A stretch of DNA of 64,000 nucleotides, taken from NCBI GenBank assembly GCA_002269645.1, contig NIVC01002974.1, forward strand, positions 62,001-126,000, in the 5' to 3' direction. Source of the stretch: Macrostomum lignano. Taxonomy: Eukaryota. Position 1 is the stretch's first letter. Every line of letters starts with the position of its first letter. Shown here one piece after another: positions 1-54,512 of the stretch. Under the pieces are notes generated by a model. The model did no database searches and was not told the origin of the DNA. It saw nothing but the letters and a program-made list of their open reading frames with translations. Made by a program: the position numbers and the translations under genes.

Positions 1-933
1 GCTATTTATCTAATTGCCTTTTTATCACACTCCTTCGTCGGGGCATTCACTTTGCCACTCTCTCGCTCCTCGTTCGGGACATCGTTCATTTGATGTCCAT
101 ATCCTATATATCTATCCACTACTTAGAAGCATTTTTAAGGAAAAATACATTTTCCTTCTGTAAAGTTCTAGACCCTCCTAAAGACACTTTAAAAAAAATT
201 TTGTATTTTAGTCTGCGTCAAGTGAGTCAGAGTCAGTGGCTCAAACCAAAAGGGTACCTATATATATTTTGCACTACTCAATGCTACTATTTAGTATCTT
301 TCTTAGACGTACCCCTCTAGAGATATTTTAACACTCTTATTAATTACTCCATAATTTTGCAGTATAACTTTGTTTTTACCACTGACTCATGAATCTGACT
401 CACCTTTAAAAAAATTTAAATATAACTTATTATTATAAAACCCCCCCTCTTAAGATAATTTTTAACCCTAAATAAAAACTTAATTTTAAGTGTCCCAAGT
501 AGAGTAAAACTTTTTCAGGATTTTGTAAAACTAATTTTAAGTTAGTACTCTCTCAAAGAGTCTATTGTACTCTAAAGGAGGAACTACGTTGCCTATACGT
601 AAATCCAACATCAGTAATAGTACATTTTGGATGAAGGGAGAACTTACAGTCCTCTGTACAGCTTCTATTGTTCTCAAAAAGGGGAACTTCCCCGCAGCTT
701 CTATTGTACTCAGGAAAGGGGAACTATGTTTGCCTATATACGGGGATCCAACAGTACTCAAAATCTCTTACCCAATCTAGTTGCTATTGAAAACAATTTC
801 ATTCTCTCCATAGTGTCTATTGTATAATACACTGAGAAAAATTTCTAGAGCTTTTTAGGCAATTTCTAGGCAAGAGACTAACATGGAGAAATACGAAGAA
901 CTTTTTCATATGTTATTTAGAAGCACAGATATA

Positions 934-1123
934 TGATGTGTTTGGAAATGAAATCGTAGTGTTAATTCGTAAAGTAATTTGTATATTTATTTTCACTCCG
1001 AAGAGTGGAATCGTAAGCAAGCGCAGTTCTGAGAAAACAAAGTTCGTCTGGGCCGTCTCTCTTTCAAGAGAGCAAACGTTAGGAGGTTAGGCCATAGATG
1101 TGCTTCGACTAAACCACACATCA
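934..1123 (-). repeat. 3' LTR of Gypsy element
   Basis: TGATGTGT...ACACATCA; matches 5171-5360 at 189/190 by eye. Confidence 0.97.
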
Positions 1124-1136
1124 TCTTCCCCCTCCT
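1124..1136 (-). promoter_or_regulatory. Polypurine tract
   Basis: AGGAGGGGGAAGA on the minus strand, immediately before the 3' LTR. Confidence 0.9.
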
Positions 1137-1152
1137 CAAGAGAGTCTCATTC

Positions 1153-4100
1153 TTATAGTTCTTCGATTAGCCGTCTTGGGGGTATGCCTTTATTCATTCG
1201 ACCAGATCGCCGGGCTTGCGGGTGCTGGACCCTTGTGGTGGGCTCCAGGTCAATGTTGACCGTCGACGCCTGGGCCGGCCTGAAGGGAACCAGGTTCCGT
1301 GCAGTCCAAACTTTTCCATTGTCGAGGCGATAGGTGAATCTGCCCAAAACTTCTTGAATGAGGAAGGGTGACGTAAATGGTGATTTGCCTTTCGGCACAT
1401 GTGGGAGTCGGATGCGCACCATGTCGCCCAGTTTGAAATGTTGCCGAGTACTCGTTCCCGCTCCAGTTGCTTTCGGGTCGCTAGAATCGCAGCTCTTTAG
1501 CTCCTCCGCAATTGGCTTCTCAATTTCTAGTTTACGGGGCTGAAACTTTGTTCGGATATCCCGCCCTAGCAGCAGTCGTGCTGGTGAGTCGCCGTCTTCG
1601 TTAGGCGTCGTCCGATAGCTGCAGATGACTTGCTGCATTCCCTCTTCGAAGCTTCTCTTATCCGCTTCAAAGGTTTGCGCAGCATGCTTAAGTGTCCGGT
1701 TAAAAACTTCTACTTTACCATTTCTTCTTGGCTCATATAGCGGAACGCAGTCATGCCTGATGTCGCGCGAAGCGAGGAAGTTTTTCATTTCAGTGGAGAC
1801 GAAGCTGCTTCCATTGTCGGACACCAGGACATCCGGGTTTCCAAAACGGTCGAATGTTTCCGTCAGCCACTTGATAATCTTCGCCGATCTGATGTCTCCA
1901 GTCAGGAGAATTTCTGGGTAAGACGAGTAGTAGTCTATCAAGGCAACAATAAATCGCTGAGTTTGAGGAGCTATCGCGAATGGGCCAGAGATGTCGATTG
2001 CCAGCTTTGACCACGGGCGCTCAGGCTTTTGTATAGAATTCCCGTCTGGTACAATGACTCTATGGGACTTTGCGCTGTCCTGACAAGCTAGGCAATGCTT
2101 GACGTAGTTATTGATCGCTCTGTCCATACCTGGCCACCAGTAAGCAGATCGCAGGAGACGCTTCATCCTCACAATGCCGGGGTGTCCTTCATGCGCGCGT
2201 TTTAGTATTTGCGGTTGTAGTTTAGAAGGCGGCACAATTTGTTCGCCACGAAATAAAATGTTCTTGTCAATTGTCAGTTCATCCTGGACTTGTCGAAAGG
2301 CACTAGCTTCCGATCGTTTGTCGATAGGTCTGGAGAGTCGCGTAGCTTCCATTACAATCTGCAATAGCTCATCGGTCTTCGTCAGTTCTTGCAAGTTCTG
2401 CATATTTATGTTAATTGCACTGCTGACTGCAAGGATGCTCTTGACCGTATTTTCGTTGTCCATATCGACATCTCTTATTCCGTCGTTAATGGGGAGCCGC
2501 GAAAGGGCATCAGCCACCTTGTTGGTGCTTCCTGGCTTGTAGATAATATCGTAACTGAATTCGGACAGTCTTACAAGCCAGCGAGTGAATTTAGCTGATT
2601 TTGTCTTATTAGTGTGGTGTCGAAGAAGACTTGTGAGCGCTGAATGATCGGTCTGCAGGGTGAACTGCCGTCCAAGCAGATATTTGGCAAAATGCTCACA
2701 TGCCCAGACGCAAGCGAGGGCTTCGTGCTCGTTCACTGCGTAGTTTCGTTCCCTATCAGACAGTGTGTGTGACGCGAAAGAGATAGGTACTTCGTTACCA
2801 TTCGGCTGTCGTTGCGAAAGGACCGCTCCTATTCCAACATCTGATGCGTCTGTTGTCAGGATCGTCGGCAAGTTTGGGTCAAAAATAGCCAGTTCAAGGC
2901 GTTCGTGGAGCAGCGACTTCACTCGTTCGAAGGCTTTTTGCTGCTTTTCTCCCCAGATAAACCTCTGGTGCTTTCTTGTCAACATTCGTAGGGGCTCTGT
3001 AACGTTAGCCAAGCCTGGCAGGAAGTTCGAATGGTAGTTGATCAATCCAAGGAAGGATCGAAGTTCTTCGGAATTCTTCGGTGCCGGTGTATTCTTGATA
3101 GCCTCTAGCTTCGCGGGGTCGGACTCGACGTTCCCAAGTTCGTTGATAATGTAGCCAAGGAAAGGCACTCGTTCTTTTCGGAGTATTGACTTGGCGGTGT
3201 TGATTCGGAAGTCTTTTTCGTGCAGCAACTTCAGAACCTTCCTTAGTTCTTCGTCGTGCTCCGCGATGGTCTTTCCGAAAACGAGAATATCGTCAATGTA
3301 TGCAATCGTGTGATCACAACCAACTAGTGTGTTGCTAACGCATCGTTGAAATACGGATGTGGAGTCCACCAAGCCCATTGGCAGTCTATTGTAGGCATAA
3401 AGTCCGATCGGGGTTGCAGTTGTGGTTAAATGCTTGCTTTCTTCGTCCAGCTCAATGTGGAAGTAGGCGCGCTTTAAATCAATCTTAGACTTGTAGCGGG
3501 CGCCTCGGAGCTTCAGAAAGAGGTCGTTGATGTTTGGTACGGGGTACCGGTCAGGGACTACAAACTTGTTCAGGTGCGACAGGTCAGTTGTAATCCGTAC
3601 GCTTCCGTCGGCTTTCCACACGGTAACCAAACCGTTGACCCACGAACTTTTCTCGATTGGGCTCCAGATTCCGCATTCCTCCATTTGTTTGATCTCTGTG
3701 ATGGCAGCCTCTTGGCGGGCAAACGGAATTGTCCTAGTGGGGATGCACTTGGGAATTGCATCAGAGCGAATTGTAATTTTATGTGTGTGGTCCGGGAAGG
3801 TTCCCAGTGACTCCTCGGACAACTTAGGAAATTGTTTTTTGACCTCGCTGAATTGGTCAGAAATGGCTGAAACCTGCATCGATGATCCGTCGAACTTCAG
3901 TCCCAGGAAGTTGATGAGATCCAGGCCGACAATTGCTTTCAGGCGATCCTGCGTGACGAACAAATTCGCTTCGACTGAACGATCTAGGACCCTCACATTT
4001 GCTGTGATACAACCAAGGACGTCCGATATGCTAGAGTTGTCGTAATTCACAAGAGAAGAGGATGTCGGCTTGATTTTGCACTCTGGCCAAATGCGCTTGA

Positions 4101-5145
4101 GGTCGGACTTTCGGATAGTCGATACTTCGGCAGCCGTGTCGAGGAGAGCGCTGTAGCTGCCTCTCTTGCCTACAAGGGTGACTTCGACGGACGGCGTCTC
4201 GTGTCTGCTGACCAGTCCCACCTTCTCGCGGACATGGTTGACGCTCTTCTTCTGGGTTCTCCTCTGGGATATTATACACTGCGCTGCAAAATGGTTAGGT
4301 TTTCCACATCCTTTGCACAATTTTCCAAGGGCTGGACACTTTGGGTCACGATAGAGATGAGTGTTGGATCCGCAACCCATGCACTGCTTATTATGTTGTT
4401 TTCCCTTGTCAAAGCGTGCGGGTGGGGCACCGGCATCTGCTTTCCGTCGACGTGGCGGCCCACTTTTAGAGCTCGGCTGGCTTTGCACTTGCTGAACTGG
4501 GGCTGGAGCGCCGCTTCGGATTATCTGGCCGGTCTCGGTGGCTGCTTCATCGGCCCGCATAGCGGTCAGAAACGTCTGCAGATCGATGGCTTGCTCAGTT
4601 AATAGCTTCTCCTGGGTGCTCTTTGACGCGCAGCCGATGACAAGCTGCATTGCCAGTTGGCGGTCTTCGCCGGCTCCGTACTCGCAGTCCGTGATTAGCG
4701 TGCGAAGGGCAGTAAAGTAGTCATTTACCGACTCGCCCGTTTCTTGCTTGCGGCGTCGAAACTCATGTTCGGCTCGGACGGGGTTTTTCGCCGTTGAAAA
4801 TATTGGCTTCAGCTCATCGACATACTCTGTGAAGCTGGAGTTCTCTTTGTCCGTCACGCAGTGTGCGTAGAGAATTCGTCTTCCTTCAGACCCCAAAGAC
4901 GTACGCAGAAATGCTTTCTTAAAAGCCTCCGAGAGCTGTGTGCCTGTTGTCGTCTCTGTAAGGTAGTAGAAATCCGATACCTCTCTTTGCCAGATGTCCC
5001 ACTTGGTTGTCGGATCGCCAGGTAGCTCCAGAAACTTGGACGGTTGGGGTATTGAGACGCGGATTGCTTGGTGATTCGTCGTCGAGGCCAATGGTTCTTG
5101 GCTCGTATTCGGCTTTCCTACCGGCGGTGGCGTCTTTGGCGGCAT
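1153..5145 (-). CDS. Gag-Pol polyprotein (two zinc knuckles, protease, RT, RNase H, integrase)
   Basis: Uninterrupted ~1330-aa ORF from the ATG at 5145. Motifs in order: CMGCGSNTH and CKGCGKPNHFAAQC, LLDTAA, YIDDILV, TDASDVGIGAVL, HEGHPG...CLAC, IDISG/VSDNG/GKVEVFN. The PR-RT-RH-IN order is Ty3/Gypsy. Confidence 0.96.
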   Translation of the reverse strand: MPPKTPPPVGKPNTSQEPLASTTNHQAIRVSIPQPSKFLELPGDPTTKWDIWQREVSDFYYLTETTTGTQLSEAFKKAFLRTSLGSEGRRILYAHCVTDKENSSFTEYVDELKPIFSTAKNPVRAEHEFRRRKQETGESVNDYFTALRTLITDCEYGAGEDRQLAMQLVIGCASKSTQEKLLTEQAIDLQTFLTAMRADEAATETGQIIRSGAPAPVQQVQSQPSSKSGPPRRRKADAGAPPARFDKGKQHNKQCMGCGSNTHLYRDPKCPALGKLCKGCGKPNHFAAQCIISQRRTQKKSVNHVREKVGLVSRHETPSVEVTLVGKRGSYSALLDTAAEVSTIRKSDLKRIWPECKIKPTSSSLVNYDNSSISDVLGCITANVRVLDRSVEANLFVTQDRLKAIVGLDLINFLGLKFDGSSMQVSAISDQFSEVKKQFPKLSEESLGTFPDHTHKITIRSDAIPKCIPTRTIPFARQEAAITEIKQMEECGIWSPIEKSSWVNGLVTVWKADGSVRITTDLSHLNKFVVPDRYPVPNINDLFLKLRGARYKSKIDLKRAYFHIELDEESKHLTTTATPIGLYAYNRLPMGLVDSTSVFQRCVSNTLVGCDHTIAYIDDILVFGKTIAEHDEELRKVLKLLHEKDFRINTAKSILRKERVPFLGYIINELGNVESDPAKLEAIKNTPAPKNSEELRSFLGLINYHSNFLPGLANVTEPLRMLTRKHQRFIWGEKQQKAFERVKSLLHERLELAIFDPNLPTILTTDASDVGIGAVLSQRQPNGNEVPISFASHTLSDRERNYAVNEHEALACVWACEHFAKYLLGRQFTLQTDHSALTSLLRHHTNKTKSAKFTRWLVRLSEFSYDIIYKPGSTNKVADALSRLPINDGIRDVDMDNENTVKSILAVSSAININMQNLQELTKTDELLQIVMEATRLSRPIDKRSEASAFRQVQDELTIDKNILFRGEQIVPPSKLQPQILKRAHEGHPGIVRMKRLLRSAYWWPGMDRAINNYVKHCLACQDSAKSHRVIVPDGNSIQKPERPWSKLAIDISGPFAIAPQTQRFIVALIDYYSSYPEILLTGDIRSAKIIKWLTETFDRFGNPDVLVSDNGSSFVSTEMKNFLASRDIRHDCVPLYEPRRNGKVEVFNRTLKHAAQTFEADKRSFEEGMQQVICSYRTTPNEDGDSPARLLLGRDIRTKFQPRKLEIEKPIAEELKSCDSSDPKATGAGTSTRQHFKLGDMVRIRLPHVPKGKSPFTSPFLIQEVLGRFTYRLDNGKVWTARNLVPFRPAQASTVNIDLEPTTRVQHPQARRSGRMNKGIPPRRLIEEL

Positions 5146-5155
5146 CGGTTCGCAA

Positions 5156-5168
5156 ATCCTCGTCGCCA
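5156..5168 (-). promoter_or_regulatory. Primer-binding site, tRNA-Ser(GCU)-complementary
   Basis: Minus strand TGGCGACGAGGAT, 2 nt from the 5' LTR. It complements the 3' end AUCCUCGUCGCCA of metazoan tRNA-Ser(GCU), recalled from memory. Confidence 0.8.
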
Positions 5169-5170
5169 AT

Positions 5171-5360
5171 TGATGTGTTTGGAAATGAAATCGTAGTGTT
5201 AATTCGTAAAGTAATTTGTATATTTATTTTCACTCCGAAGAGTGGAATCGTAAGCAAGCGCAGTTCTGAGAAAACAAAGTTCGTCTGGGCCGTCTCTCTT
5301 TCAAGAGAGCAAGCGTTAGGAGGTTAGGCCATAGATGTGCTTCGACTAAACCACACATCA
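5171..5360 (-). repeat. 5' LTR of Gypsy element
   Basis: Direct repeat of 934-1123; adjacent to the PBS. Confidence 0.97.
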
Positions 5361-6672
5361 ATATACAGAACCGTAACAAATGGGTAAAAAGATACAACGC
5401 TATAGGCAATAAGAAGTTTAATTTACCACGGATTACTGGAAGCATTCAAGATAAGGACACAAAAAAAAGAAGCTCGACAGATACAAAAAAATTGTTGAAG
5501 AACTAAAGAATTCCATCAGGAGAATCGACACAAACGGACCTTCGATTCAAGTCCTCGCTGGAACTACGACGATTCAAGTCTTCGCAGAAGGAAGTCATAA
5601 TATTGAAGATGTTACCAAACAACTTGAAGCCATTCAGGAGATGATCAAAAAGCAAGACAACGCAGCACTTCAATATGGAATTCAAGCCGGCAACATCTAT
5701 CTAAACATGGAGAGAGTCCTAACAAAATCGAAGTTTATGACTCTTAAGAAAAATACGGTGTTTACTCCTCAATGGATAGGATTTCTAATGAAGATCGCGG
5801 AGCTCGCCGATCAATTCGAGTTCTTCAAAAGATCGACTCTGTCTCTAAACAAGCTCTACTCTAACAGCAAATACCTGGACACTGCCTTGGAAGAATTGAA
5901 AGTGTTTGAAGACAGCGAGATGGAAGTGGATCCGCTGGAGTCGCAGCCTGAATGAAAGTGGTACTTTCAAAATTTGAGGTGGGCGTCTATCATAACAGCC
6001 AATGACATTTTAGCAAACTATTTTACTTATGCAAGTAGTAAATGTAACATCTTTAACACAATTTTTACTACAACAATTTTTTACTATTTTTAACACAACT
6101 TTGCAAAAATAATTTATAAAAGTTTATAAACTACAGGATTTTGCAAAACTAATTTTAAGTTTAAAAAGCTATTAATTTTTTTATATAAAAAATAGAAGTT
6201 AAAAATCCAAACATTACTGGAGAACTACCCCAAAGATATTACGATGATGTTGTGAATTTTTCTGGTACCAAAGATTCTATAAAACGAGATGAAATGATTG
6301 CCGAGATGCAATATATGTTCTTTCGATATAAGGAATTAGTAAAAAGATATGGAGCAAATAAATGTCCTCCACACCTTCAGCTCGTATACTTTTCGAGTAT
6401 ATCTTGCAAGTATTAATAAGTGGAATTTAGTTAATAGACAAAGAATAAGAAATGATGGATTTTTCGTTATGTTAACATTGAACATTTTCTGACTGCCCAT
6501 AACTCTTGAGAATTATATTGATTCGTCAAAATTATATGCTTCATTTTTTCAATAATAAAATGGAAGGAGATTTTGCCAATTCTGATGATATCTTTCTTGA
6601 AGCTTCTAATGGTAATGGAGAGAAGAAAAGAATCGAAGTACTTAGAGAACTTAATGATAATGATTATAATGA

Positions 6673-8298
6673 TTATGTCAATATATATATAACAATCGAA
6701 AATTTAGAATCGGCACTTGTAATATACTTTGGGATTCTGAAAATAATAAGAAGATTCCAGTAGATATGTCAACTAAAGAAGATAGAGAATCAGAAGAACC
6801 GCCAAGATATCCAGAAAAACATAACATGATTTGGATAGCAACCAAAGAATCTAACCTATCTGTTATAGATGTTGACGATGCCGAAAAGTGTCCAAAATTG
6901 AACGAGTTATGTCAAAAACTTTGTAAATGGAGTGTTAAAACAAGAAAAGGATATCATTATTACTTTAGAAAAGTTGAGGGACTGAAAACGACAATCCGAC
7001 AAGATTTGGGATTTGATATATTTGATAATTTGATTTGATTTGATTTGATTTGATAATATATGCTCCTCCTGGATTTTATTATGCTAATAATAAGGTTAAA
7101 TATTGGATTGTTCCAATAGACGAAGGTAAAGGTAGTAGAATAATTGATATGCCAAAGGAAATTTTAGATGAGGTTAATAGATTCTTAAAACCAAAAAATA
7201 TACAAAAGAAACGAACGAATCATAGAGTTATTGAAACTAATCAAGATTATGAAATGATTGTAGAATTACTTAAAATCATTCAAGATAAAAATCAAGAATA
7301 CGAGAGTTGGAGAAATACTGCCTTTGCCCTTCATAATTTTGATAATAGTGAAAATATGTTTAATGTCTTTGCTAATTGGTCGAAAGTCGATTATGCTAAT
7401 TATGATCTAAGTGTATGTGAAAATTTATGGAATTCTATTAAAGATAATACTAAAGATGGAATAACTATAGGAACTTTAAAGTCTTGGGCTAAAGAAAAAA
7501 TATTGAAGAATATGAAAATTGGCTTAATAAATATAATAAATATGCAGAAATCACTTTTCTCGATAATAACTTCTCTGATGACAACATTAATAAACGTTTA
7601 CGTAAATATATGGAAGGCCGTCTGATTTATAACAACGAAGGCATATACTATTTTACTAATGAGAGAAGATGGAAAAGAATTAATATAAAAGATAAATTAA
7701 CAGAGATTTTAAGCCCTATTACTAAACAACTTGAGGAAAGGAAAGAATATTTTGAGAAAATAATAAGAGAAGATGAAAAGATAAGCCTAAATAAAAAGTT
7801 AAAACAAACAAAGAAAAACCTTGAATATATACAGACTAATACAAATAAAGAAAATATTAGTAGTTCATTTGGGGAAAATTACGCAAATAATAAAATTGGA
7901 TTTGATATAAAACAATATATAATAGGTTTCGAGGATGGAGTTTTTGATTTAGAGAAAAATGAATTTAGAGAATATCGTCACGATGATTATGGGCCGTATG
8001 CAGAAAGCTCTGTCTAGGGTAGTCCGGTCTTGAAAAGCTAGTCTAGACTAGGATTTGGTATACAGAAACACAAAGTTAGACCGGTCTACTATAGACAGAA
8101 CTAGGGTAGCTAGACCATAGACTATAGACTGAACTACCCAAGTCCGGACTAGCTAGTCTGGACTAAGCTTTCTGCATACGGCCCTATGTATCTATGTCTG
8201 TTGGATATAATTACTCGGATGTTTTGAATGTAAGTGATGAGGATTATAATTTCATTAAACAACTACATGAAAAGATTCATCCAGATGAAGAGAATAGA
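6673..8298 (+). pseudogene. PrimPol + PriCT-2 + D5_N primase(-helicase), fragmented, SF3 helicase part missing
   Basis: VIDVDD and KTRKGYHYYF (PrimPol), IIYAPP, YESWRNTAFALH...WSK...TIGTLKSWAKE (PriCT-2), IGFEDGVFDL...REYRHDDY-VSMSVGY and KIHPDEENR (D5_N). Several frameshifts and a MITE insertion. Confidence 0.82.
7991..8184. mobile_element. 194-bp MITE, PIF/Harbinger-like
   Basis: 19-bp perfect TIR GGGCCGTATGCAGAAAGCT (7991-8009, 8166-8184) and a 3-bp TAT duplication. Excision restores the D5_N frame. Confidence 0.92.
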
Positions 8299-9553
8299 AA
8301 GAGTTGGCCAATTCCTACATCTTTCCAATTTCTAAGGGTCCGCCCCGGAGGGGCTGTGCCCATTACAAATACTAAACCCTATTCTTTTTTCTAACCAATA
8401 GAATTTCGGCCCTCGGCCTTGGTTTAGGGGGGGGGTGGTGCCCGGAGTGAGTAGGTTCTCTGGACTGCAGTGTGGCTAGGACGGGACTGAGCCCCCCCGG
8501 GCGTACCCGCCCTGCAGGAAAGAATGACCAATTCACAAAGGTGTACGGTAGACCCAGTAGACTGCCAGCCCTGAGGCTGTGCACCCGGGCTGCAGGTCGG
8601 CAAGCTGCCTGCTTTAGGGCTATGGTGCTCCTCCTTTCTGCCATTCTTTTTTTCTGGGCTGGCATCCCAGCGCTGTTTTATCCCTTTAGCTTTGTGCCTT
8701 TGTGGCTTTTATTATTTTATCTGGCCACTAGAAGCCTTCCAATATTCGGAGTTATGAGCTCTGCCCTTGCCCGGTCCACCTTGCCCTGTCCTCGGGTCCA
8801 TCTCCTGGCTCCTGCTGAAGGTCCCTGCTTGCGTGTCTCTGGCTCTCATCCTGACAGTGGATTGGTGTCCTGGGAAGGATGTTCGTCCCGAACCGGGGAC
8901 AACCGGCTGAGTCCGGAGTCCTCTTGCCCTGGGTGCCTCTTTTCCCGACCCCTTGGCCTGGCCCCCTAAATTGAGCTGGATAGGCGATGCCCTTGGGTTG
9001 GTAGCAATAGAGGCGTTGGAGTCCTGGCCTCGCCTGGAGTCTCCCCCTCGGATACAAGCCTTCCAGACTCACTCCAAAATAGAGCTGGGTAGTGAAAAGC
9101 CTTGAGGCTCGAGACCTTCAGGGCGCCCTGTAAGGATCGCACTTGGTAATTAGCTGCCCAGACTCGCTCCAATAGTTTACGCCATTTCCTAGGTTTAGGA
9201 GTAACTCCTCACTCGGACCGCTTTCTTAGTAGTATTCCAAGCATTTCGCTCTCCAATTTTTCTGCGCGCTCCCAAAGACTCGCTAGCTGGGGGGGGGGGG
9301 GTGGCCTGGGTGGACTCGGTCCTAGCACCGTCCCTGATTCCACTGTTGGTTTGGCGGTGTCTTGTACCGTAGGCTTGGGTCAACTCGCCCACCCGCGCTT
9401 TGAGCCGGGTCCAATCCCAATGCATCCATGGGGTATCTCGGGCCCTGGACTGCTAATGCCTTGGCCCCTGGTAGTGCCCCTCGCGGCAGAGCCCACCTCG
9501 GGCTGATCCGCGGGTAGCTAAGCTTCCCACCCTCGTTTAACAACAACAACAAC
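8299..9553. mobile_element. Unclassified GC-richer insert ending in (CAA)n, possibly a non-LTR retroelement remnant
   Basis: Abrupt composition shift. It truncates both the primase (left) and pPolB (right). TAACAACAACAACAACAA tail at ~9538-9553. No TSD or recognisable domain. Confidence 0.35.
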
Positions 9554-10006
9554 AAATTCTATAAATTCATGCAACCAATCACTTTCTTTAAATGAAATAA
9601 TTATATGTATCTTTGTAAATTTCATTCCAAGACTTTTATAAAATTCAAGAACTCGATGATGTAAAACATATTTCGTTTTATCATGAAATGTTAACATTAA
9701 CTTTGGGAGTTTACTTTTTCCTCTCTTCTCAATTTCTAGATATTGTTTCTGAATATCGGAAAATTCATTTACATTTATTGTTCTTTTTTTCAGGAGCTCT
9801 TTCTTCAGTATACTCAAGATCAACTTCTAAAATATACCCACGACCTTCAACTGGATTATAATTACTTTCGAATCTAAAATCACTAGTGGGAAGATTCATC
9901 ATCATCGCTTCACCATATAAATTATTCTTGCCTAAATATAACACATAAGAAGTCTCGAGATTTTTGTCATAATCTTCGAGATATTTATTATTAATTTTTT
10001 TATATA

Positions 10007-13000
10007 TCCTATATACTAAAAATGAAATGTCTGTGTGTATGTGTGAGATAGATTCCAGAAAAAACGGCTCAACCGATTTTCTTCAAACTTGCACCATTCG
10101 ATCAGAAATTTTCCTGGGACGGTACATGCATCTTGGCTAAGAAATTGCTCAATGTTAAAGGGATTAAATATTCGAAAAACATGCTTTTTTGCAAAGGTCA
10201 AGCAAACTTTTCGACTTGAAATGCATTGTAAGAATGCTAGAGAAAAAACTGACTGGCTCAATTCCGATTGTGATAAAGATTGCATCACAACAAGTTGAAA
10301 ACAGTGCCGAAAAAATGCACACACGACTTGATTTAAATTGCGTAACCAATATTGCTAACTTGAATTGAGACTGATACTGGCTGACTGAGAAATTGATTAT
10401 GTCATAACTTTCTACTCCAATTGACTTGCCGTAAGAATTGAATTATAAGGGCCACAATTCATGTTCTCCAATTGAAAAGAGATAGCCCTGATGCGAACAG
10501 ACTGGAATGCTAATGTAGTGACCTGGGTTCGAATCTTAGTAGTGCAAAGAGATTTTTTTATTAAAACACCTTAAAAACACAACAAAACTGCTAAACATCA
10601 AAGAAGCGCAATTTCAAACATAGAAGAGCCAACATATCGAACATAAGAGTTACCATGTCAAACATAGAAGAGCCACCATGTCGAACATTAAAGAGCCACC
10701 ATGTCAAACATAAAAGAGCCAGCATGTCAAACATAAAAGAGCCACCATGTCAAACATAAAAGAGCCACCATTTCGAACATTAAAGAGCCGCCATGTCAAA
10801 CATTTAAGAGCCACCATGTCGAACATAAAAGAGCCACCATTTCGAACATTAAAGAGCCACCATGTCAAACATTTAAGAGCCACCATGTCGAATATAAAAG
10901 AGCCACCATTTCGAACATTAAAGAGCCACCATGTCAAACATTTAAGAGCCACCATGTCAAACATTAAAGAGCCACTTTGTCGAACATTAAAGAGCCACCA
11001 TGTCAAACATAAAAAGCCAACATGTCAGACATTAAAAAGCCACCGTATCAAACATAAAAGAGTTACCATGTAGAACAAAAAAGATCCACCATGTCAAACA
11101 TAAAGAGCCACCATGTCAAACATAACGAGCCACCATGTCAAAAATTTAGGAGCCACCATGTAGAATATTAAAGAGCCACCATGTCGAACATAAAAAAGCC
11201 ACCATGTAAAATATTAAAGAGCCACCATGTCAAACATTCAAGAGCCACCATGTCAAACATATATGTGACTTTATGTCAAACATTAAAGAGCCACCATGTC
11301 GAACATTAAAGAGCCACCATGTCGAACATTAAAGAGCCACCATGTCAAACATTAAAGAGCCACCATGTCGAACATTAAAGAGCCACCATGTCCAACATAT
11401 ATGTGACTCCATGTCAAAAATGAAGGAGCCATCATGTCAAACATAAAAGAGCCGCCATGTCAAACATAAAAGGACCACCATGTCAAACATTAAAGAGCCA
11501 CCATGTCGAACATAAAAGAGCCACCATGTCTAACATTAAAGAGCCAACATGTCGAACATTAAAGAGCCACCATGTCGAACATTAAAGAGCCACCATGTCA
11601 AACATTAAAGAGCCACCATGTCAAACATTAAAGAGCCACCATGTCAAACATTAAAGAACCACCATGTCAAACATTAAAGAGCCACAATGTCCAACATATA
11701 CGTGACTCCATGTCAGACATTAAAGAGCCATCAAGTCAAACATTAAGGAGCCACCATTGCAGACAGTAAAGAGCCACCATGTCAAACATTAAAGAGCCAC
11801 CATGTCTAACATTACAGAGCCACCATTTCGAACATTAAAGAGCCACCATGTCTAACTTTAAGGAGCCACCATGTCAAACATTAAAGAGCCACCATGTCAA
11901 ACATTAAAGAGCCATCATGTAGAACATTAAAAAGCCACTATGTCAAACAATAAAGAGCCACCATGTCAAAAAATAAAGAGCCACCATGTCAAACATAAAA
12001 GAGCCACCATGTAGAATATTAAAGAGCCACCATGTAGAATTTTAAAGAGCCACCATGTTAAACAAAAAAGAGCCATTATGTCGAACATAAAAGAGCGACC
12101 ATGTAAAACATTAAAGAGCCACCATGCAAACATAAAAGAGCACCATGTCAAACATTTAAGAGCCACCATGTCAAACATAAAAGAGCCACTATGTAAAACA
12201 TTAATGAGCCACCATGTCAAACAATAAAGAGCCACCATGTCAAACATAGAAGAGCCACCATGTCAAACATAAAAGAGCCACCATGTCAGATATTAAAAAG
12301 CCACCGTATTAAACATAAAAGAGTTATCATGTAGAACAAAAAAGAGCTACCATGTCGAACATAAAAGAGCCACCATGTCGAACATTAAAGAGCCACCATG
12401 GTAAACATTTAAGAGCCACCATGTCAAAAAATAAAGAGCCACCATGTCAAACATAGAAGAGCCACCATGTCAAACATTAAAGAGCCACCATGTCAAAAAT
12501 AGAAGAGCCACCATGTCAAACATAGAAGAGCCACAACGTCAAACATAGAACAGCCACCATGTCAGACATTGAAAAGCCACCGTATCAAACATAAAAGAGC
12601 CACCATGTCAACATAAAAGAGCCACCATGTCAACATAAAAGAGCCACCATGTCAACATAAAAGAGCCACCATGTCAAACATTAAAGAGCCACCATGTCAA
12701 CATAAAAGAGCCACCATGTCAAACATTAAAGAGCCACTATGTCAAACATAAAAGATACACAATTTCAAACGTAAAAGTAAGCGAATTTTAAAGGAGCCAC
12801 TATAATGCTAAGGAAATTGTCGCACTAGCTACTTATTGTCCGGTGGATGCTTGCTATCTGGGGGATGCTTACTATTTGGGGGATGCTTGCTATCTGGGGA
12901 TGCTTGCAATCTGGGGAATGCTTGCTATCTGGGGGATGCTTGCTGTCTTGGGATGATTTCTTTTTGCATTGCACTTCATTTGAGTATTTTGTGTTTTCTT

Positions 13001-13090
13001 TGTGAAGGCTTTATTTGGCTATCTTTTTGTTACTTGTAGAGAACAGAGATTCTATACAGATGTCCCCCAACGGGGGGCGAAGATTGCTAG
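10007..13090 (+). mobile_element. Non-autonomous Helitron (unit A)
   Basis: 5' TCCTATATACTAAAAATG after a host A; 3' CCCCCAACGGGGG hairpin followed by CTAG at 13087-13090. No long genuine ORF. Confidence 0.88.
10610..12775. repeat. Minisatellite, ~20-21 bp unit (AAAGAGCCACCATGTCAAACAT[T/A]) inside Helitron A
   Basis: About 100 degenerate tandem copies visible. Confidence 0.95.
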
Positions 13091-13614
13091 TCTAATATAC
13101 TAAAAATCCTATATACTAAAAATGAAAATCTTGCTTGCTTGCTTGCTTGTAATCGATTAGAGAAAAAATGGCTTAACCGATTTTCATGAGACTTGCACTG
13201 TTCGATCAGAAATTTTCCCGTGACGGTACATGCATCGTGGCTAAGAAATTGCTCGATGCTAGAGGCATTAAATATTCGAAAAATATGCTTTTTTGCAAAG
13301 GTCAAGCAAACTTTTCGACTTGAAATGCATTGTAAGAATGCTAGAGAAAAAATTGACTGGTTTATTCTGATTCTGAAATAGATTGCATCATAACTGAATT
13401 GTAACTCCAACTTGAATTGCGTCACAGTATTGAAAATGCAGTGTGGAAGCGTAGCACCAGACTTGATTTAGATTGCGTAACCATATTGTCAACTTTAATT
13501 GAGACTGATACTGACTTGCCTAGGAAATTGATTGTCATAACTTTTTTGTGAGTGAGTGTGGAATTATATAAAAGCTACACACTTTTATATAATTCAACAC
13601 ACTACACAAAACTC

Positions 13615-14233
13615 ATAGAAGCGTCATGTAAAAGTCATAGAAGCGTCATGTAAACAATCATAGAAGCGTCATGTAAAAGTCATAGAAGCGTCATGTAAAC
13701 AATCATAGAAGCGTCATGTAAAAGTCATAGAAGCGTCATGTAAACAATCATAGAAGCGTCATGTAAACAATCATAGAAGCGTCATGTAAACAATCATAGA
13801 AGCGTCATACAAAAAATCATAGAAGCGTCATGTAAACAATCATAGAAGCGTCATGAAAAATCATAGAAGCGTCATGTAAAAGTCATAGAAGCGTCATGTA
13901 AACAATCATAGAAGCGTCATGTAAACAATCATGGAAGCGTCATGTAAACAATCATGAAAGCGTCATGTAAACAATCATAGAAGCATCATGTAAACCATCA
14001 TAGAAGCGTCATGTAAACAATCATAGAAGCGTCATGTAAACAATCATAGAAGCGTCATGAAAAATCATAGAAGCGTCATGTAAAAGTCATAGAAGCGTCA
14101 TGTAAACAATCATAGAAGCGTCATGTAAACAATCATAGAAGCGTCATGTAAACAATCGTAGAAGCGTCATGTAAACAATCATAGAAGCGTCATGTAAACA
14201 ATCGTAGAAGCGTCATGTAAAAATCATAGAAGC
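13615..14233. repeat. Minisatellite, 22-23 bp unit (CATAGAAGCGTCATGTAAACAAT)
   Basis: About 27 tandem copies; degenerate copies recur near 20230-20300. Confidence 0.95.
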
Positions 14234-14236
14234 AAG

Positions 14237-17200
14237 AAATTGACGCCAATGAAGTAATACGCGAGCGAAATCATGGTGCGAGCGGGCCAGTTCAGTGTGC
14301 TACACTATGGCCGAAGATTATTTCAGCAGTACTTAGTGGACATGTGTGCCAAGATTGAGGCAGAGAGGCTGCTGTATTTGCGGACCGATCAGCAGGACCT
14401 GCGCAGCGAGACGTATAGCGGTCTGCGGGACGCTCTCTTTGCAGCTGATGGCAGGTCTACCGACAGAGATCCGAGTGACATAGGCAAGCCCGCACATGTG
14501 CTTCTGTCCTCAAGCTTCGTTGGTAGGCCAAGGTACCTGATGGAGAGGCTGCAGGACGCTATGACCTATGTTCACAAGTTTGGTAAGCCGGACCTGTTTG
14601 TCACGGCAACATGCAATCCGAATTGGCCTGAGATCAGCGCCCAGCTGCTGCCTGGACAGCGGGCTGAACACCGGCCGGACATTGTTAGCCGAGTCTTTGA
14701 AATGAAGAAAAAAGCTCTGCTGGCCCAGCTAACGAAGCGCTATGGGAAAGAGGCCGCGCACGTCTGCTCGCTAGAGTACCAAAAGCGTGGTGAGTGCAAG
14801 TCTCAGTATTAAATTTTATGAAATTTAAATCGTTATAAAGATACTAAATATAGGTGGGTTTGTATGATGCAAATTCGATACAGATCGGATAATTGGACTG
14901 AAAGATGTCTTGATACTTTTTTTGATAATCCAGGTCTCCCCCATGTGCACTTTCTGCTGTGGCTCGCGAGCGGCCAGCGAGTGACTCCGGACCGATACGA
15001 TGACATCGTGTCTGCCGAGATTCCGGACCCACAGCAGCAGCCTGTGCTGTATGAGCTGGTGAAAACGCACATGATCCATGGTCCTTGTGGCAAGGACAAT
15101 CCAGCGTGCCCGTGCATGGAGAATGGCGAATGCAGCAAGGGCTTTCCGAAGGAGTTCCAGCAGGTGACGCTGATCAGCGATACTGGCTACCCACTGTACC
15201 GCAGACTGTCGCCTGAGATAGGTGGATTTACAGTGGACAAACTGTTCAAAGGCCGCAGCATTCGCATGGACAATAGGCGAGTCATGAGTATTAGATGCCT
15301 CTTGTATTTTATGTTGGAAACGTTTGACAATGTTTTTATCCTTAAACCACAGGTGGGTTGTGCCTTATAGCCCTGAACTGTTGCTCCAGTTTGCGTGCCA
15401 CATGAACGTTGAAGTTTGTGCCACTGTAAAGTCGGTCAAGTACGTGATCAAGTACTTGCTGAAGGGCGGCGACATGGCAACGTTCAAAGTCAATGCCAAT
15501 CAGAATTCTGCTGAAGCGACAGAGCAGAGTGCGGGTAGTCAGCAGCCGGCACAAACGGTAGCGGCAAACGATGGAGAGAGGCCGCGTGATGAAATCAAGG
15601 AGTATCTGTCTGCGCGCTACATTGGCCCAATGGAAGCTGTGAATACAATTTTGGGCTTTGAAGTAATAAATATTTTAAATTTTAAATATTGCAAAGCTAT
15701 GGCTTTTTGTATTCGGAAAAACTTAAAAGTGATTATTTCTCTCCCACCTTCTGATCAGGTGCACGACAGATTTCCGGCGGTCATCCGGCTCTGCGTTCAC
15801 AAGTCGGAGGAGCAGCTCGTGTATTTCAACGAGCAGACCGCAAGTGCTAGAGCCAGGACGCCGAGGGACTCTACGTTGACGGCATTTTTCAAGCTGTGCC
15901 GTACTGACGAGTTCGCTCGGTCCTTGCTCTACACGGAGGTGCCGTCCTACTTCGTGTTGCATGCCAGTGAAAGAGTGTGGCGGCGGGCGAAGCGAGGCGC
16001 GAAGCCGATGGCCACCCGGGTGTAGTGCGGAACACAAACGTTGCACGCATGTACACGGTGAGCCCAAGAACTGGTGATTTATTTTATGTTCGCATGCTCC
16101 TTTTGCGAGTCAAGGGACCAACCAGCTTCGAGGCGCTGCAGACCGTGGACGGCGTTGTGCATCCCAGCGCCAAGGCTGCTTGCATGGCACTTGGCCTGTT
16201 GCAGCGAGATGACCACTGGCGACGGTGCCTAGCTGAGGCCGTTCAGTCAAGAATGCCAAGAGCCCTGAGACACCTTCTGGCTGTCATTCTCGTATGGGGC
16301 GAGCCTGAGGATGGCAACGACCTCTGGTGCTCTTTTGCCGAAGATATGTGCGAGGACCTGCGGTTCCACCATCGAGATCTAAGTGCCGAGGAGATTACTG
16401 ACCTAGCGCTCCGCGAGCTGCAGAGCATGCTGACCTCCATGGGTGGGAGAAGCCTGCCAGAGTACGGCTTGCCTGCGGCCTCCGTGATGCCTCAAGATGG
16501 ACCGATGCAGTTCGATACGATTGAGCAAGCGCAGATTACTGAGGCACGCTTACCAATGCTAACAGACGAGCAGAAAGCCGTGTACGAGTCAGTGACTCAG
16601 GATCTTGTGAGCGGCAACGGCGGCTTGCACTTCCTGGACGCGCCCGCTGGCACTGGCAAAACCTTCCTGCTGGAGGTTTTGCTGGCCTTCGTGCCCAGCC
16701 GGGGTGAAGTCGCTCTCGCCGTTGCGGCTTCTGGAATCGCAGCGACTCTGTTGCCAGGTGGACAAACTGCGCATTCCACGTGAGTTGTTTATATTTAATT
16801 TGTAAATTATTGGTAACTTACGGATAATTAAACAAGTAAATATGTGAATACTTCCTCTGCTGTATGATACCCAAATTTTTCCATGTCAGGTTCAAGATAC
16901 CAATTCGGGTATTACGCTCAAACAAGGACGTGTGCGCTGTTGGAGTGCAGTCCAAACAAGCTGATGTATTTCGCACAGCGCGTCTAATTGTGTGGGACGA
17001 GATTTCTATGACAAACTGGAAGGATTTGGAGGCTGTCGACCGGTGCTTGCGAGATGTGCGGAAGCAGGACTCGCCATTTGGCGGACTGGTGTTTGTGTGC
17101 TCTGGTGACTTCCGGCAGCTTCTACCGGTTGTGGTGCATGGGACTCGTGCTAACAGCGTCATGGCGTGTGTGAGCCGATCCTCACTGTCGAAATACTTCC

Positions 17201-18209
17201 AACGGCATCGCCTGACGAGAAACATCCGGATGCTGAGCAGTTCCGATTCTGTAGCGTATCAGATGTACACTGAGCTACTCAAGCAGGTAAGTCTGATTTC
17301 ATCAGTTTATTAAATGATTGACAATGATACACTAGACGCGGATTTGTTTTTGAGCTCAATTTTTTAAGTTTGCGTCATTTAGGAATGCCTATGCTTAAAA
17401 GTGTGTATAGGTTATGAAATATTCGACATTTTAACCCTCCACAGATCGGATCCGGAACAATGGAGCAGGATGTGGAGGAGAAAGTGTCTCTGCCAGCCGA
17501 GATCGTGATTTCTGCGGAAGGGCCTCTCACTGACCTGATCAATTTTGTGTACCCATCGTTTGAAGAACCAGTGGAGAGAGACAGCTACTTTGCAAACCGA
17601 GCGATCCTGGCGCCTTACAATGACTCAGTGGATACCATCAATGAGACGTGTCTGGGCATGTTCCCCGGAAGCCTGCGAGAGTACCGCTCAATAGACAGTG
17701 AGGCCGATGAGGATGCCGCTACGCACTTCCCGCCTGAGTTGCTGAACCAGCTGGATGCCCCGAACTTTCCGATTCCCTTGTTGAGGCTGAAAGTGGGTAT
17801 GCCAGTAGTGCTTCTGAGGAATATCAACCCGCCACGGTTGTGCAATGGTACGCGGCTCATCATACTCGCGATGGGCGAGAACGTGATTCGGTGCAAGATT
17901 GCCGCTGGCCAGTTCACGGGAGATGAGATTCTTCTGCCGCGAATCCCGCTGATTCCTAGCAATGCGGACCTGCCCGTCAGTTTTAAACGATTACAGTTCC
18001 CTGTGAAGCCGAGTTTCTGCCTGACGATCCACAAGTCACAGGGACAGTCTCTGGACACAGTTGGCGTGGACCTCGCTGTCGGTTGCTTCACTCATGGCCA
18101 TCTGTATACGGCTCTGTCGCGAGCAAGGAACTCTGCTAATGTCCGTGTCCGTACTTCTGGAACTAAGACGAGGAACGTGGTGTACCCAGAGGTGCTGACT
18201 GGAGACTAA
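14237..18209 (+). pseudogene. Helitron Rep/Helicase (HUH endonuclease + PIF1-like SF1B helicase), 5 introns, apparently defective
   Basis: RLFQQYLVD, KFGKPDLFVT, EYQKRG|LPHVHFLL, YVIKYLLKG, DAPAGTGKT, DEISM, GDFRQLLPV, TIHKSQGQS. Introns 14790-14933, 15277-15352 (GC-AG), 15663-15758, 16780-16889, 17287-17444. TAA at 14255 and a frameshift near 16006. Confidence 0.92.
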
Positions 18210-18474
18210 GCGATTTCGGACGCTATTCGTGAGTTCAAGTCCAAGGGATGTGTTTGAGAAGTGTCTGGCGTCTGACTGTAGAGAATGAAATCAAAGTCGC
18301 GTGGAGTCTCAATGAACTGATAGCCCTGAGAGAGTACATTGAGTAAATCCTATTTACGAGGGATGTTTCATAAGTTCTTTCTTATACTCATCTATAACAG
18401 TTTTACATGAACATAATATACAGTCATTTAACAGACAAAAACTACAGCCACTGATCATACAGTCACTATGCAGA

Positions 18475-19225
18475 CAGTCTCTAAACAGAAAATAATACAG
18501 CCTCTAAACAGACAATACAGCCTCTAAACAGACAATACAGCCTCTTAACAGACAATACAGCCTCTAAACAGACAATACAGCCTCTTAACAGACAATACAG
18601 CCTCTAAACAGACAATACAGCCTTTAAACAGACAATACAGTCTCTAAACAGACAATACAGCCTCTAAGCAGGCAATACAGCCTCTAAACAGGCAATACAG
18701 TCTCTACAGACAATACGGTCTCTAAACAGACAATACAGTCCCTAAACAGACAAAACAGCCTCTAAACAGACAATACAGCCTCTAAACAGACAATACAGTC
18801 TCTAGACAGACAATACAGTCTCTAAACAGGCAATACAGCCTCTAAACAGACAATACAGTCTCTAAACAGACAATACAGCCTCTAAACAGACAATACAGCC
18901 TCTTAACAGACAATACAGCCTCTAAACAGACAATACAGCCTTTAAACAGACAATACAGTCTCTAAACAGACAATACAGCCTCTAAGCAGGCAATACAGCC
19001 TCTAAACAGGCAATACAGTCTCTACAGACAATACGGTCTCTAAACAGACAATACAGTCCCTAAACAGACAAAACAGCCTCTAAACAGACAATACAGCCTC
19101 TAAACAGACAATACAGTCTCTAGACAGACAATACAGTCTCTAAACAGGCAATACAGCCTCTAAACAGACAATACAGTCTCTAAACAGACAATACAGCCTC
19201 TAAACAGACAATACAGTCTCTAACA
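18475..19225. repeat. Minisatellite, 20-bp unit (CTCTAAACAGACAATACAG[C/T])
   Basis: About 37 tandem copies downstream of Rep/Hel. Confidence 0.95.
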
Positions 19226-22019
19226 GACAATAATACAGTCACTAATACAGTCGCTGAACAGACCATAAAATACAGTCAGTAAACAGATAATAGTACAGGT
19301 ATATATAAGCAGGTGAAACATGTATGTATAATTGGAATTTATAAAGCAGCCCTCATTGAGAGTAGGTTGACTGCATCTTAACTGGGCTAAAAGAGTTTGT
19401 GAATGGTGTATAGGAGCTGCTCTATATACCCTGTGGTTCCAGACTCTAAAAGGAGCATTTGCAGTCAAGCTCTGTAGCAGCCTTAAGCAGAGCGGAGCGA
19501 CTTAATGTTTGGTTTGAGAATGAATGTATCTACCTTTGCTTACACCCAATGCATGCAATTGAGCAGTGACGCGAGTCGGCAGGTAGTCAGGATGGCATAT
19601 ACATGTACATTTTTGTACTGCTAAAGCTATACTGGCTGCTTGTCGATGGCACCATCTGCTGAAGCGACAGTCTATCCTTTTGTTCATTAATTATTATTCA
19701 ATACATTATTTTAAATTTTCACCTGCTATTAGCAGCAGAAGATCATATTATATCATTTGAATAAATACATGCGTTTGTTTAACTATTGTTTCACTTTTGA
19801 ACGTCAATTTTCGGTTGTTTAAAATCTAATTAAAAGCTCGTACCGTTTGTTGTTTCTTTATTTGTTGTAGTTCGTAAAAGTACAGTTGAATAAAACTGTT
19901 AATTTTTACATTTACTGTGTATAATATTTTGTTAAACTAACAGAAATGTTTATTACTTCGGCGAATTTATTCACGCAGTTTCGTATCACCCTACACTCAA
20001 AGTATGCAAGTATTAAATTGTACGCGTATATGCACGTTCTTTGTATTGACGTTCTATGGCGAAAATAAATAAAGCTTAAAATATCTCACGTCATTAATTA
20101 AGAATATTCTGTTCACAAAAATTTGGTGCATAAGCGCTCACAAACTTATGCAAATGTCAGGCTGTAGGGTTAGTGTTAGGGTTGGTGTTAGCCAGGGTTT
20201 AGATTTAGTGTTTAGATTTAGATTTAGATAGAAATAATGGAAGCGTCGTGAAAAATAATGGAAGCATCATGCAAACAATCATAGAAGCACCATGCAAAAA
20301 CTCGTGAACAGAATATTAAATTAAGGGTTATGGTTAGGGTTAGAAGTTTGACAGGATATTTTTTCAGATTTCAAGGCTGAGCTACATGTAGCTTATTAAA
20401 AAACGTGTATTGCATTTCTTTTGCTCCCCAACGGGGGGCGTTGATTGCTAGTATCTCCTAAAATTCCAGAAAAACCTCCACGAATTCCAGACTCCATCAT
20501 TCTCAACATTTCTTCATTCTGTATCAATTCTAATTTAATTCCTGTAAATTTTAAAGCACAATTCCAAGCTAATCCAGAAAGCGAATAACAATATGCTGGG
20601 TCTATTCTGAAGTATTCTAACAACGTGGATCTAAACTTCTCGAATGCACTAACAAAATCAAATATAAATCTTTTATCTTCTTCAGATAATATAAATGGAG
20701 GTTTTAGAAATCTAGATCCGTCTAAAAATACAACTCGACTTGTATAATTCCCACAGGTTATTGCAACATGATCTTCGGATGATTTCGAAATAAAGTTAAC
20801 TTTATATATTTTTTTCTAATCTTGTTGAAGGTTCGACAAGATAGTTGAGATCGATTCAAGATTCATTAAGAAGAAATAATGGAATAGTTTGATTATTTTT
20901 ACCCTCTTTTGTATTACAAGATTGACATGCTGCTTCTCGATATTTTCCATTATAATGATTATGCTCTCTAACTTTTACACATTCGTCGAAAGATCTCGAA
21001 CATAAAAAACAATTTGTCGTTTCCCTATAAATATTTTCTTCCTCTTCTGACAGATTAGGGTTAGGGTAATTATTCATAAGTTTTTTCACATGCTCAAATC
21101 TATTTAACACAGTATTAACAAAATCATTAATTTCGTTCCCGTAGTATATTAGATTTTTTAAGAGTTTAGGGTAGTGTGAACGAATGTATAAAGTCCAATT
21201 TGATAATTTCTCCGTTGAATCATAATCTAATATTGCAGAAAATACTAAGGCCTTTCTAACACTCATGTAATGATTTTTAAATTCTATTGTGGTTTTCTTT
21301 TTTGGAATTTCTATTATCGTTTTAAAATCAGTACAAATATGATTATCGAGTGCTTTTTGAGAATATTTAATTTGAAGACATTTTCTACATAAATAAACTT
21401 TATTCTTAGTAGTAAGAAATGTTTCTAAATTAGTAATTAGACAATAATGCCCTTCAACAAGTAGTAGATCAATAACTTTGGGATTATTATATTCTTCTGT
21501 CAATCGAATTAAATAAAGTGTTTCATTCTTTGTTTTATCTCTCAATCCAAAAACATTTATGTGAAGATTTTTCAGCTTTTCAATCTTTAAAATATCTTTG
21601 ACATTTATTGGAAAGTTTAAATCACCAAATTTAATTTCATTTACAAATTCTACATATTTTCCAACTCTATATCGATGCTTTTTTACCGGATGAAGTTTTG
21701 CTAAAATTGACCATAGAAAACACCTAATATCTGTGTTCTTTACATTTAATATAGCATTTGTATTAATAGGAATTTTAATATATGTACCTCGTGATCTCAA
21801 TTGATTAACTCCAACAATTTTTAATTTTATCTTTTCTAATTCAAAAAACATATAACCAGAACCTTTTTCAATAAACTCATCCTTCCACGCTCCGAATTCA
21901 TCGAGAATATCATCGAAAGTACTTTCAATAGACTCTTCGATTCGGAGGAGGTTAAAAATAGTTCTATATTTAAAATGATATTCAAATTCTATAAAATTAT
22001 CATCGCATTGCATCGTGAG

Positions 22020-23273
22020 TCAGATGTTGCAATCGAACTCATTCAGATGCTTGTGCATCTCCTTTAGTTCGTCTTCAGTGCCGGCGAAGACCATAAAATG
22101 TCGTCAATGTAGCGCTTGAAGAAACGAGGGGTAAACGGAGCAGCTTCTGAAGCTTTGGATTCCCAGGCAGACATAAATATGTTGGCGTAGGATGGCGCAA
22201 AGGCCTTTCCCATGCTTGTGCCTTTGACTTGAAGGTAGCGCGTGTCGTTGAAAACAAAATCATTTTTGTTCAAGTTAATGTCCAGGAGCGCAAGAAGATG
22301 GTTATCTGGCCTTGAGGTTTGGGGAAATGTTTGAAAGGCATCTCTAATGGCGTCCATCCCCTTATCAGTGGAAATATTAGTGTACAGGGATTCAACACCA
22401 TTGTAACCAGAAAGACATTTTCGTCTTTTCAAAAATCAAATCATTAATAGCCGCTTGAAAGTGGTCCGTGTCTCGGATGAAGGAGTCTTGTTCCTTAGCG
22501 ATCGGCTGTAGGAAGAGATCGATAAATTTGGCGCCCATGTAGCTTTCCGAGCTGCAGTCCGAGACAATGGGTCTCCCAGGAGGCACTCCAGGAGTAGGCC
22601 ATTCTTCGGAATCCTTATGGATTTTTGGCAAAAGGTAAAAAATTCGATCTCTTGGAATAGTTGGCGGAATCAGTTGCAGGTATTGATGATTAGTAATTAT
22701 CTTTTCTTCTTTAAGATCATGAAAAATGGCTTTGATAATGGCACTGGTCTGGGCGCTCATTGCAGTGTCAAGGGGTTGGTAGAAGGTCCTGTTGGAGAGC
22801 TGCCTGTTAGCTTCCAGTATGTAATCAGTTCGATTCATAACGACCATATTGCTGCCCTTGTCGGCAGGTTTAATGACGATACTGCTATTGTCTCGAAGAG
22901 TCTTCAGTGCCATTCTCTGCTGCTCCTGAAGGTTTGGCTTGTTGTGTATGATTCTTGGAATCCTAATCCTGTTTAGGCTTTCAAAAAGGTCTCTGTGAGA
23001 GCGCCACTTGTCCAAGTTGATGTTGGGGATCGAAGCTCGGCCAGTATAAGGGATGCGCGGGGTGTAAGCACACGCACACGTGCGACGCTGAAGCAGGGAG
23101 TTAAGAACTATTCTCTGCTTTAAAACCTTGATGGGGTCAGAAAGGACGCTGGACCCCATAACAATTGGGGCTGGCACAAAGTTCTTCCCCACTCCTAAAA
23201 TTTCGGTTTCGCAGTCAGAAAGACGATAATTCGATAAGTTCAAGACTTGGTTGCTAGCCGCATTTCTAAAAAC
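22020..23273 (-). pseudogene. Penelope-type reverse transcriptase
   Basis: VLNLS, IVIKPADKG, FYLLPKIHK, PGRPIVS, VESLYTNI, GTSMGKAFAPSYANIFM, RYIDDI. Frameshifts near 22400-22430 and 22100. Confidence 0.9.
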
Positions 23274-33639: not shown

Positions 33640-33671
<32 letters not shown>

Positions 33672-52337: not shown

Positions 52338-52369
<32 letters not shown>

Positions 52370-54495: not shown

Positions 54496-54512
54496 CTGCG
54501 AGGGTTCGGGAT

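Follow-up and report, generated by a model that had tools for sequence, protein, structure and literature searches.

The protein-primed family B DNA polymerases (pPolBs) of Polintons are known to carry a viral ovarian tumour-like protease domain (vOTU) and inserted nucleases (PMC11161782, PMC8502044, 10.1101/2023.08.22.554363), and, when intact, such a pPolB replicates a linear genome starting at the termini, using a terminal protein that the vOTU protease sets free (PMC11161782). A replicase of another class, in which an archaeo-eukaryotic primase (AEP) is joined to a superfamily 3 (SF3) helicase, unwinds DNA and primes de novo (PMC11161782), and group 2 animal Mavericks often use such an AEP-SF3 protein in place of pPolB (10.64898/2026.06.19.733378). 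Genomes with two replicase classes and single elements with a second replicase have been described, as have tandem insertions of a Polinton and a Polinton-like virus (PLV) in anemones, and deletion across tandem elements has been proposed to give rise to mosaics (10.64898/2026.10.13.758929). A model of replicase turnover lets a PolB element gain a primase-helicase module at its end, thereby passing through an intermediate with both (PMC11296320); the combination of PolB and primase has been called uncommon (PMC3671162). Polinton-related insertions are also reported from flatworms (10.1101/2025.04.19.649669). In this study, we analyzed a stretch of 64,000 nt from the flatworm Macrostomum lignano (assembly GCA_002269645.1, contig NIVC01002974.1, positions 62,001 to 126,000; hereafter the window), in which the remains of a pPolB gene and of a primase gene converge on a repeat from its two sides. 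Among the papers listed in our searches of the literature, none treats the present locus or gene pair.

The locus is a dead, single-copy relic of the Polinton/PLV type with two broken, divergent replication genes that decayed recently. Over its first 22 kb, the window consists of AT-rich pieces (GC 0.27-0.34) interleaved with GC-richer inserts. The original prediction, made from the DNA alone, had described an AT-rich backbone with a plus-strand primase and a convergent minus-strand pPolB bearing an EndoVII-like motif, and this was borne out, well beyond what chance would give, by Pfam matches and by colinearity with homologues. The parts of the locus on which the argument turns are the following.

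6560-7990, plus strand: first part of the primase, with Prim-Pol, PriCT-2 and most of D5_N (Pfam, homologue alignment)
8185-8307, plus strand: end of the D5_N region of the primase; homology ends at 8307
Left edge 8308-8325 to right edge 9553, no strand: high-copy GC-rich repeat ending in (AAC)n, without target duplication
9554-10006, minus strand: palm piece of pPolB (homologue residues ~721-865), frame change near 9810
20452-22013, minus strand: N-terminal part of pPolB (homologue residues ~68-687), with vOTU, exonuclease region and EndoVII/HNH zinc domain

Three Pfam domains were matched in the primase above the curated cut-offs and in the order Prim-Pol (E 5.8e-6), PriCT_2 (E 6.7e-15) and D5_N (E 1e-11). 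The gene is colinear with residues 113-630 of the homologue P0065, and its end is 69% identical to P0068 across 8185-8310. The reading frame changes near 6685, within a GATTT array at 7020-7044 and at 7495, the pieces themselves being free of in-frame stops. Since single contigs from three runs agree with the assembly over 5331/5335-8014 (0-2 other letters, 0 gaps), these frame breaks are genomic. The full-length relatives P0065, P0214 and P0215 run on into an SF3 helicase (residues ~631-966 of P0065), which is missing from the window primase and gave no match elsewhere in the window. An exhaustive homologue search returned 149 proteins, among them a small close family (P0065, P0066, P0068, P0070 and P0214-P0216) whose members, where a contig size is recorded, lie on environmental contigs of 1-6 kb. 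The PriCT-2 piece matched none of 114 candidates in a word-index search against longer proteins, and the phage collection contributed distant phage primases only (~23-25% identity, best 10 of 207).

The gene had been called a D5-type primase with ties to nucleocytoplasmic large DNA viruses (NCLDVs; Nucleocytoviricota), PLVs or virophages. Giant-virus-type D5 proteins (L066, L070, L077 and L093) match AEP_C962R in four of four cases, whereas the window piece matches Prim-Pol and not AEP_C962R, so that identity with the NCLDV core D5 was rejected. Because its N-terminal domain has the Prim-Pol form, as in the PLV-like contig L067, and not the AEP_C962R form of giant-virus-type D5 proteins, the gene is classified by its predicted domains as a PLV-type AEP-SF3 replicase and not as an NCLDV core gene. 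Diverged copies of the primase region were also seen, namely a second copy in X5 record 18 (7415-7849, 434 nt, 65 other letters, 13 gaps) and a short piece in X13 at 7796-7962. Among the matches listed, the only close primase locus is L001 (3.2 kb), in which a 305-aa open reading frame (ORF; 1970-2884) adjoins the primase relative. This ORF carries putative tyrosine-recombinase-like motifs; it had no match in Pfam, PHROGs, NCBIfam or PDB, and a single-sequence structure model (pLDDT 44) was too poor and was discarded. Neither a tyrosine recombinase nor inverted repeats beside the primase were recognised in the window.

The pPolB is colinear with a 1143-residue homologue, four window pieces covering residues 68-865 in order. 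The pieces lack ~100 residues from the middle of the protein and all residues past 865 (the last ~280), motifs B and C among them, and motif A is without its invariant aspartate. In the N-terminal part, one in-frame stop and a frame change near 20810 were found, and the start was removed by insertion of a retroelement. The Cys (~21721) and His (~21448) of the vOTU domain are present and fit invariant columns of alignment A5. The EndoVII/HNH zinc domain (~20886-21044) lies within the exonuclease region (Endonuclease_7, E 1.3e-6, frame 20859-22010, Pfam), and none of the pPolB pieces matched PF03175 in Pfam. The homologue search singled out 64 of 3313 candidate proteins, with three proteins of Mytilus edulis among the best (35-37% identity); C. 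briggsae CBG24022 was also matched (E 2e-25, 30% identity). A quick tree of the N-terminal piece, left unjoined, kept 59 of the 64 rows (5 short alignments were dropped); in it the window sequence is sister to a 24-row clade of Mytilus plus ENA sequences (SH-aLRT 99) on a long branch. Judged from sequence, the gene represents a divergent lineage of vOTU-bearing Polinton pPolBs. For both genes the domains named in the original prediction held; the missing SF3 helicase and the missing end of pPolB had not been stated in it. With these losses, the locus is unable to encode a working polymerase or helicase.

Both genes stop at the edges of one repeat, the primase at 8307 and pPolB at 9554. An insert had been predicted here and was found, but its proposed left edge (8298/8299) had to be moved, as primase homology reaches 8307 and the edge lies at 8308-8325; in other copies, loose ends lie at 8325 and 9549. 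No target duplication was found, the longest exact match between the flanks being 5 nt. Because both homologies end at the edges of a repeat without target duplication, the primase/pPolB join is the scar of a deletion or rearrangement; comparison with the homologues would put the coding sequence lost there (the helicase and the last third of the polymerase) at ~1.8 kb or more. The summed depth of the repeat is in the thousands (four runs) vs 11-69 for the backbone (three runs covering it throughout). The left junction is contained in X5 record 19 from another study (8221-8354) with 0 differences. The left end of the repeat folds no better than shuffles, and an Rfam scan of 1-25000 gave a single sub-threshold match and none within 8308-9553. 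In a run guessed to be RNA the repeat is very deep, and one contig there joins 9549 back to 8334; tandem or circular forms of the repeat are suggested.

In composition and decay the two genes resemble each other closely. The GC content is 0.279 for the primase and 0.278 for pPolB, that of third codon positions (GC3) 0.198 and 0.192, and the depth in X1, a rough measure from what is possibly the source sample, is 69.1 for the primase contig vs 61.3 for the pPolB piece 9619-10029. Stop codons number 0 in 509 codons of the primase and 1 in 666 of pPolB, where 4.5 and 6.1 would be expected at 5% neutral substitution; with so few stops in each, both genes decayed recently and equally. The correlation of codon use between them (0.932) was reached by none of 47 foreign pPolB ORFs.

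For comparison with related loci, viral contigs were scanned; queries A5 and A6 gave matches, and P0009, A1, A3 and A4 gave none. A scan of metagenomes gave at least one locus. Among the matches listed, the 64 loci found with the pPolB profile (29 of at least 10 kb, 35 below 10 kb) are all distant (best 28-29% identity to the window piece), and the 29 primase loci are likewise distant except L001, 22 of the 28 viral ones matching only the PriCT-2 region. Pfam was run on 104 of 122 ORFs of the relatives, covering 15 of 16 loci and leaving out overlapping frames and one locus. At these 15 pPolB loci we found rve (9/15), A32 ATPase (10/15) and a capsid domain (5/15) and no Prim-Pol, PriCT-2 or D5_N, so that their predicted content is that of ordinary Polintons, PLVs or virophages. 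The 411 ORFs of the 64 pPolB loci gave only low-complexity minisatellite matches to the 64-kb window. At least 38 contigs filed under prokaryotic metagenome-assembled genomes (L028-L065) carry a Polinton-type pPolB, some together with rve, ATPase and capsid genes, and are probably contigs of eukaryotic viruses binned with prokaryotes.

We favor, at a rough probability of 45%, the reading that both genes stem from a single mosaic element of the Polinton-like kind that lost its middle by deletion. A single element is preferred over two neighbours because the genes are equally young, convergent, and lost their 3′ ends at one event. It is highly probable that the two lay close together before the deletion took place. 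The Polinton/PLV-like origin of both genes, as originally predicted, stood; their union in a single two-module lineage is a candidate reading. Under the favored reading, virus-like DNA would have integrated recently and then taken up several transposons, and a local deletion at the repeat, by recombination between two copies or by insertion with target loss, would have removed the helicase together with the final third of the polymerase. Genes for capsid, ATPase and integrase may be missing because they went with the middle of the element; the integrase could also lie to the left of the window. An intact element with both genes would have been able to begin replication either by terminal-protein priming or through initiation by the primase-helicase, and such a dual-replicase state would probably have been a passing stage of replicase exchange rather than a stable lineage.

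Several results weigh against a single mosaic element. A primase-helicase of the window kind occurs at 0 of the 64 pPolB loci and a pPolB at 0 of the 29 primase loci listed. In accordance with the original prediction, which had seen no capsid, integrase or terminal inverted repeats (TIRs), scans of the window detected no capsid, A32 ATPase, protease or RVE integrase besides the integrase of an inserted gypsy retrotransposon, and with TIRs likewise not found, none of these features survives to delimit an element. The right junction is covered by 15 letters only on the repeat side, and none of the contigs among the matches listed spans the repeat; since they leave it unspanned, the pairing rests on the assembly and the scar. 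The counter-scenario named with the original prediction, in which the two genes are joined only by an insert or a deletion, fits the junction as found, with its high-copy repeat and the loss of both 3′ ends. The match in codon use mostly reflects AT richness and is weak evidence because the top two foreign pPolBs reach nearly equal values (0.927 and 0.926).

The absence of co-occurrence fits with a pPolB-bearing Polinton and a PLV-type AEP-SF3 element that lay in tandem or nested in the same transposon-rich region, their replication genes being brought face to face by a later repeat-bounded deletion. This is a serious possibility, although we place it short of an even chance. Tandem integration of Polinton and PLV is known from anemone genomes (10.64898/2026.10.13.758929), most of the 15 scanned pPolB loci combine rve or A32 ATPase with pPolB and none holds primase domains, and the diverged primase copy in X5 implies that the family is present elsewhere in the genome; the candidate tyrosine-recombinase-like ORF next to the primase relative in L001 would point the same way. 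Independent integrations need not match in age and AT content, yet decay and composition do match here, and no element boundary is left between the genes. A joining of distant loci, by ectopic recombination between copies of the repeat or by an assembly error at it, would account for the repeat depth in the thousands against 11-69 in the backbone, for the lacking target duplication and for the unspanned repeat, but it needs two virus-like flanks of equal age and composition by chance, and the left junction is reproduced without differences in the contig of another study. We regard it as improbable. Random long-range joins at a repeat of such copy number would rarely hit virus-like genes on both sides.

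In its most far-reaching form, the single-element reading makes the locus the fossil of a Polinton-like virus that infected animals, with pPolB at one end, the primase-helicase of PLV type at the opposite end, each facing inward, and a deleted capsid module between them; we hold this form to be rather unlikely. That the same fossil would be an intermediate of the replicase-turnover model, composed of two little-described gene lineages and integrated recently, so that intact relatives may survive, is doubtful to the same degree. A two-module virus lineage has precedent and is unproven from this locus alone. If the pairing is native, the locus would show, in an animal, a small DNA virus in the course of swapping its replication module, and a PLV-type primase family, seen here otherwise on environmental contigs only, would have entered an animal germ line. 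If it is not, the locus would be an ordinary dead Polinton/PLV remnant and a clear case of a host repeat and a deletion faking a gene pairing.

The remaining features of the locus include the insertions predicted to split the backbone, all of which (gypsy, MITE, repeat and Helitron) were located with their ends.

1-933, no strand: left AT-rich backbone, GC 0.34, without recognisable gene, continuing past the window edge
516-543, in the left backbone, and 6134-6161, plus strand, upstream of the primase: the two copies of a 28-bp direct repeat, 27/28 identical
934-5360, minus strand: inserted gypsy long terminal repeat (LTR) retrotransposon, 190-bp LTRs, ATATA target duplication
5455-5955, plus strand: 166-codon open frame, family not recognised, GC3 0.48
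7991-8184, no strand: inserted miniature inverted-repeat transposable element (MITE), terminal inverted repeats, TAT target duplication, very high copy
10007-20451, plus strand: inserted Helitron, ends A/TC...CTAG/T (slash, element edge), Rep/Pif1 helicase exons, minisatellites
22014-24990, minus strand: reverse transcriptase-bearing retroelement, cutting the pPolB N-terminus, weak RVT_1 match

The Pfam scan of the window comprised 20 frames. The gypsy element has a single intact polyprotein frame of 1356 aa and differs between its LTRs at 1 of 190 bases, so it is apparently young, and the Helitron matched Helitron_like_N and PIF1. The retroelement at 22014-24990 is presumably Penelope-like, and beyond it no further viral backbone was found in the window. 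No inverted pair bounding the backbone was detected as a TIR; the left end of the backbone lies beyond the window and the right end is cut by the retroelement.

Small ORFs beside the two genes, as predicted, are present, but the 166-codon ORF does not share their AT richness. Because its GC3 (0.48 vs 0.20 and 0.19 in the replication genes) and its codon use are dissimilar, it possibly stands outside the viral backbone. A single-sequence structure model of its product (pLDDT 38) was too poor and was discarded. The copies of the 28-bp direct repeat enclose ~1.2 kb (gypsy excluded) that include this GC-richer ORF; two matches occurred in 0 of 100 shuffles, and the repeat may be a common promoter motif or mark the ends of an inserted cassette. 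A 1109-nt contig of X13 matches 5455-6542, including the ORF, exactly and has 21 unmatched leading letters, at an AG; as a sign of splicing in a transcript this is weak, coming from one run of guessed RNA status. No significant similarity was seen between two small frames, one near 5363 and one near 6210, and the 18 bp shared by 6170 and 9989 are of low complexity and were taken as chance. Elsewhere in the window, a duplication of ~19 kb lies within 25800-56000, with introns filled by minisatellites. From their translations we take the exons at 33252-37037 and 51950-54555 to be argininosuccinate-lyase-like, and several further genes of the duplication to be WSC-like.

Compared with described Polintons or Mavericks (adintoviruses, Polintoviricetes), the window pPolB shows the same vOTU Cys/His, exonuclease and palm order as the 'Beta' class, whose vOTU-bearing pPolBs fall outside PF03175, as does the window gene (PMC8502044). 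From the definition given there we infer that it belongs to this class, the tree holding no named reference. Its distant relatives adjoin rve, A32 ATPase and jelly-roll capsid genes, of which none was found in the window, where pPolB instead faces a primase gene, an arrangement seen at 0 of the 64 related loci among the matches listed. A zinc-binding EndoVII/HNH domain within the polymerase, as in the window, is also reported for the HNH-inserted pPolBs of nematodes and of oomycetes (pPolB2; 10.1101/2023.08.22.554363), so that this domain is a known feature and not new; in the quick tree the join with the C. briggsae protein has weak support and lies between long branches. The primase has the same Prim-Pol, PriCT-2 and D5_N order as the AEP-SF3 replicases of PLVs and group 2 Mavericks (PMC11296320; 10.64898/2026.06.19.733378), and L067, a 15.4-kb contig, shares it with a weak Prim-Pol match. 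Such systems usually replace pPolB, whereas the window has both genes, the primase without its helicase, and no recognised tyrosine recombinase. The contrast with canonical animal Polintons drawn in the original prediction is weaker than stated, given that group 2 Mavericks often use AEP-SF3 (10.64898/2026.06.19.733378) and that elements with several replicases exist (10.64898/2026.10.13.758929). The multi-replicase and tandem polisuviruses of the latter work also place two replicase classes next to each other in degraded endogenous elements; the window differs from them in keeping two replicase stumps only, with a host repeat at their junction.

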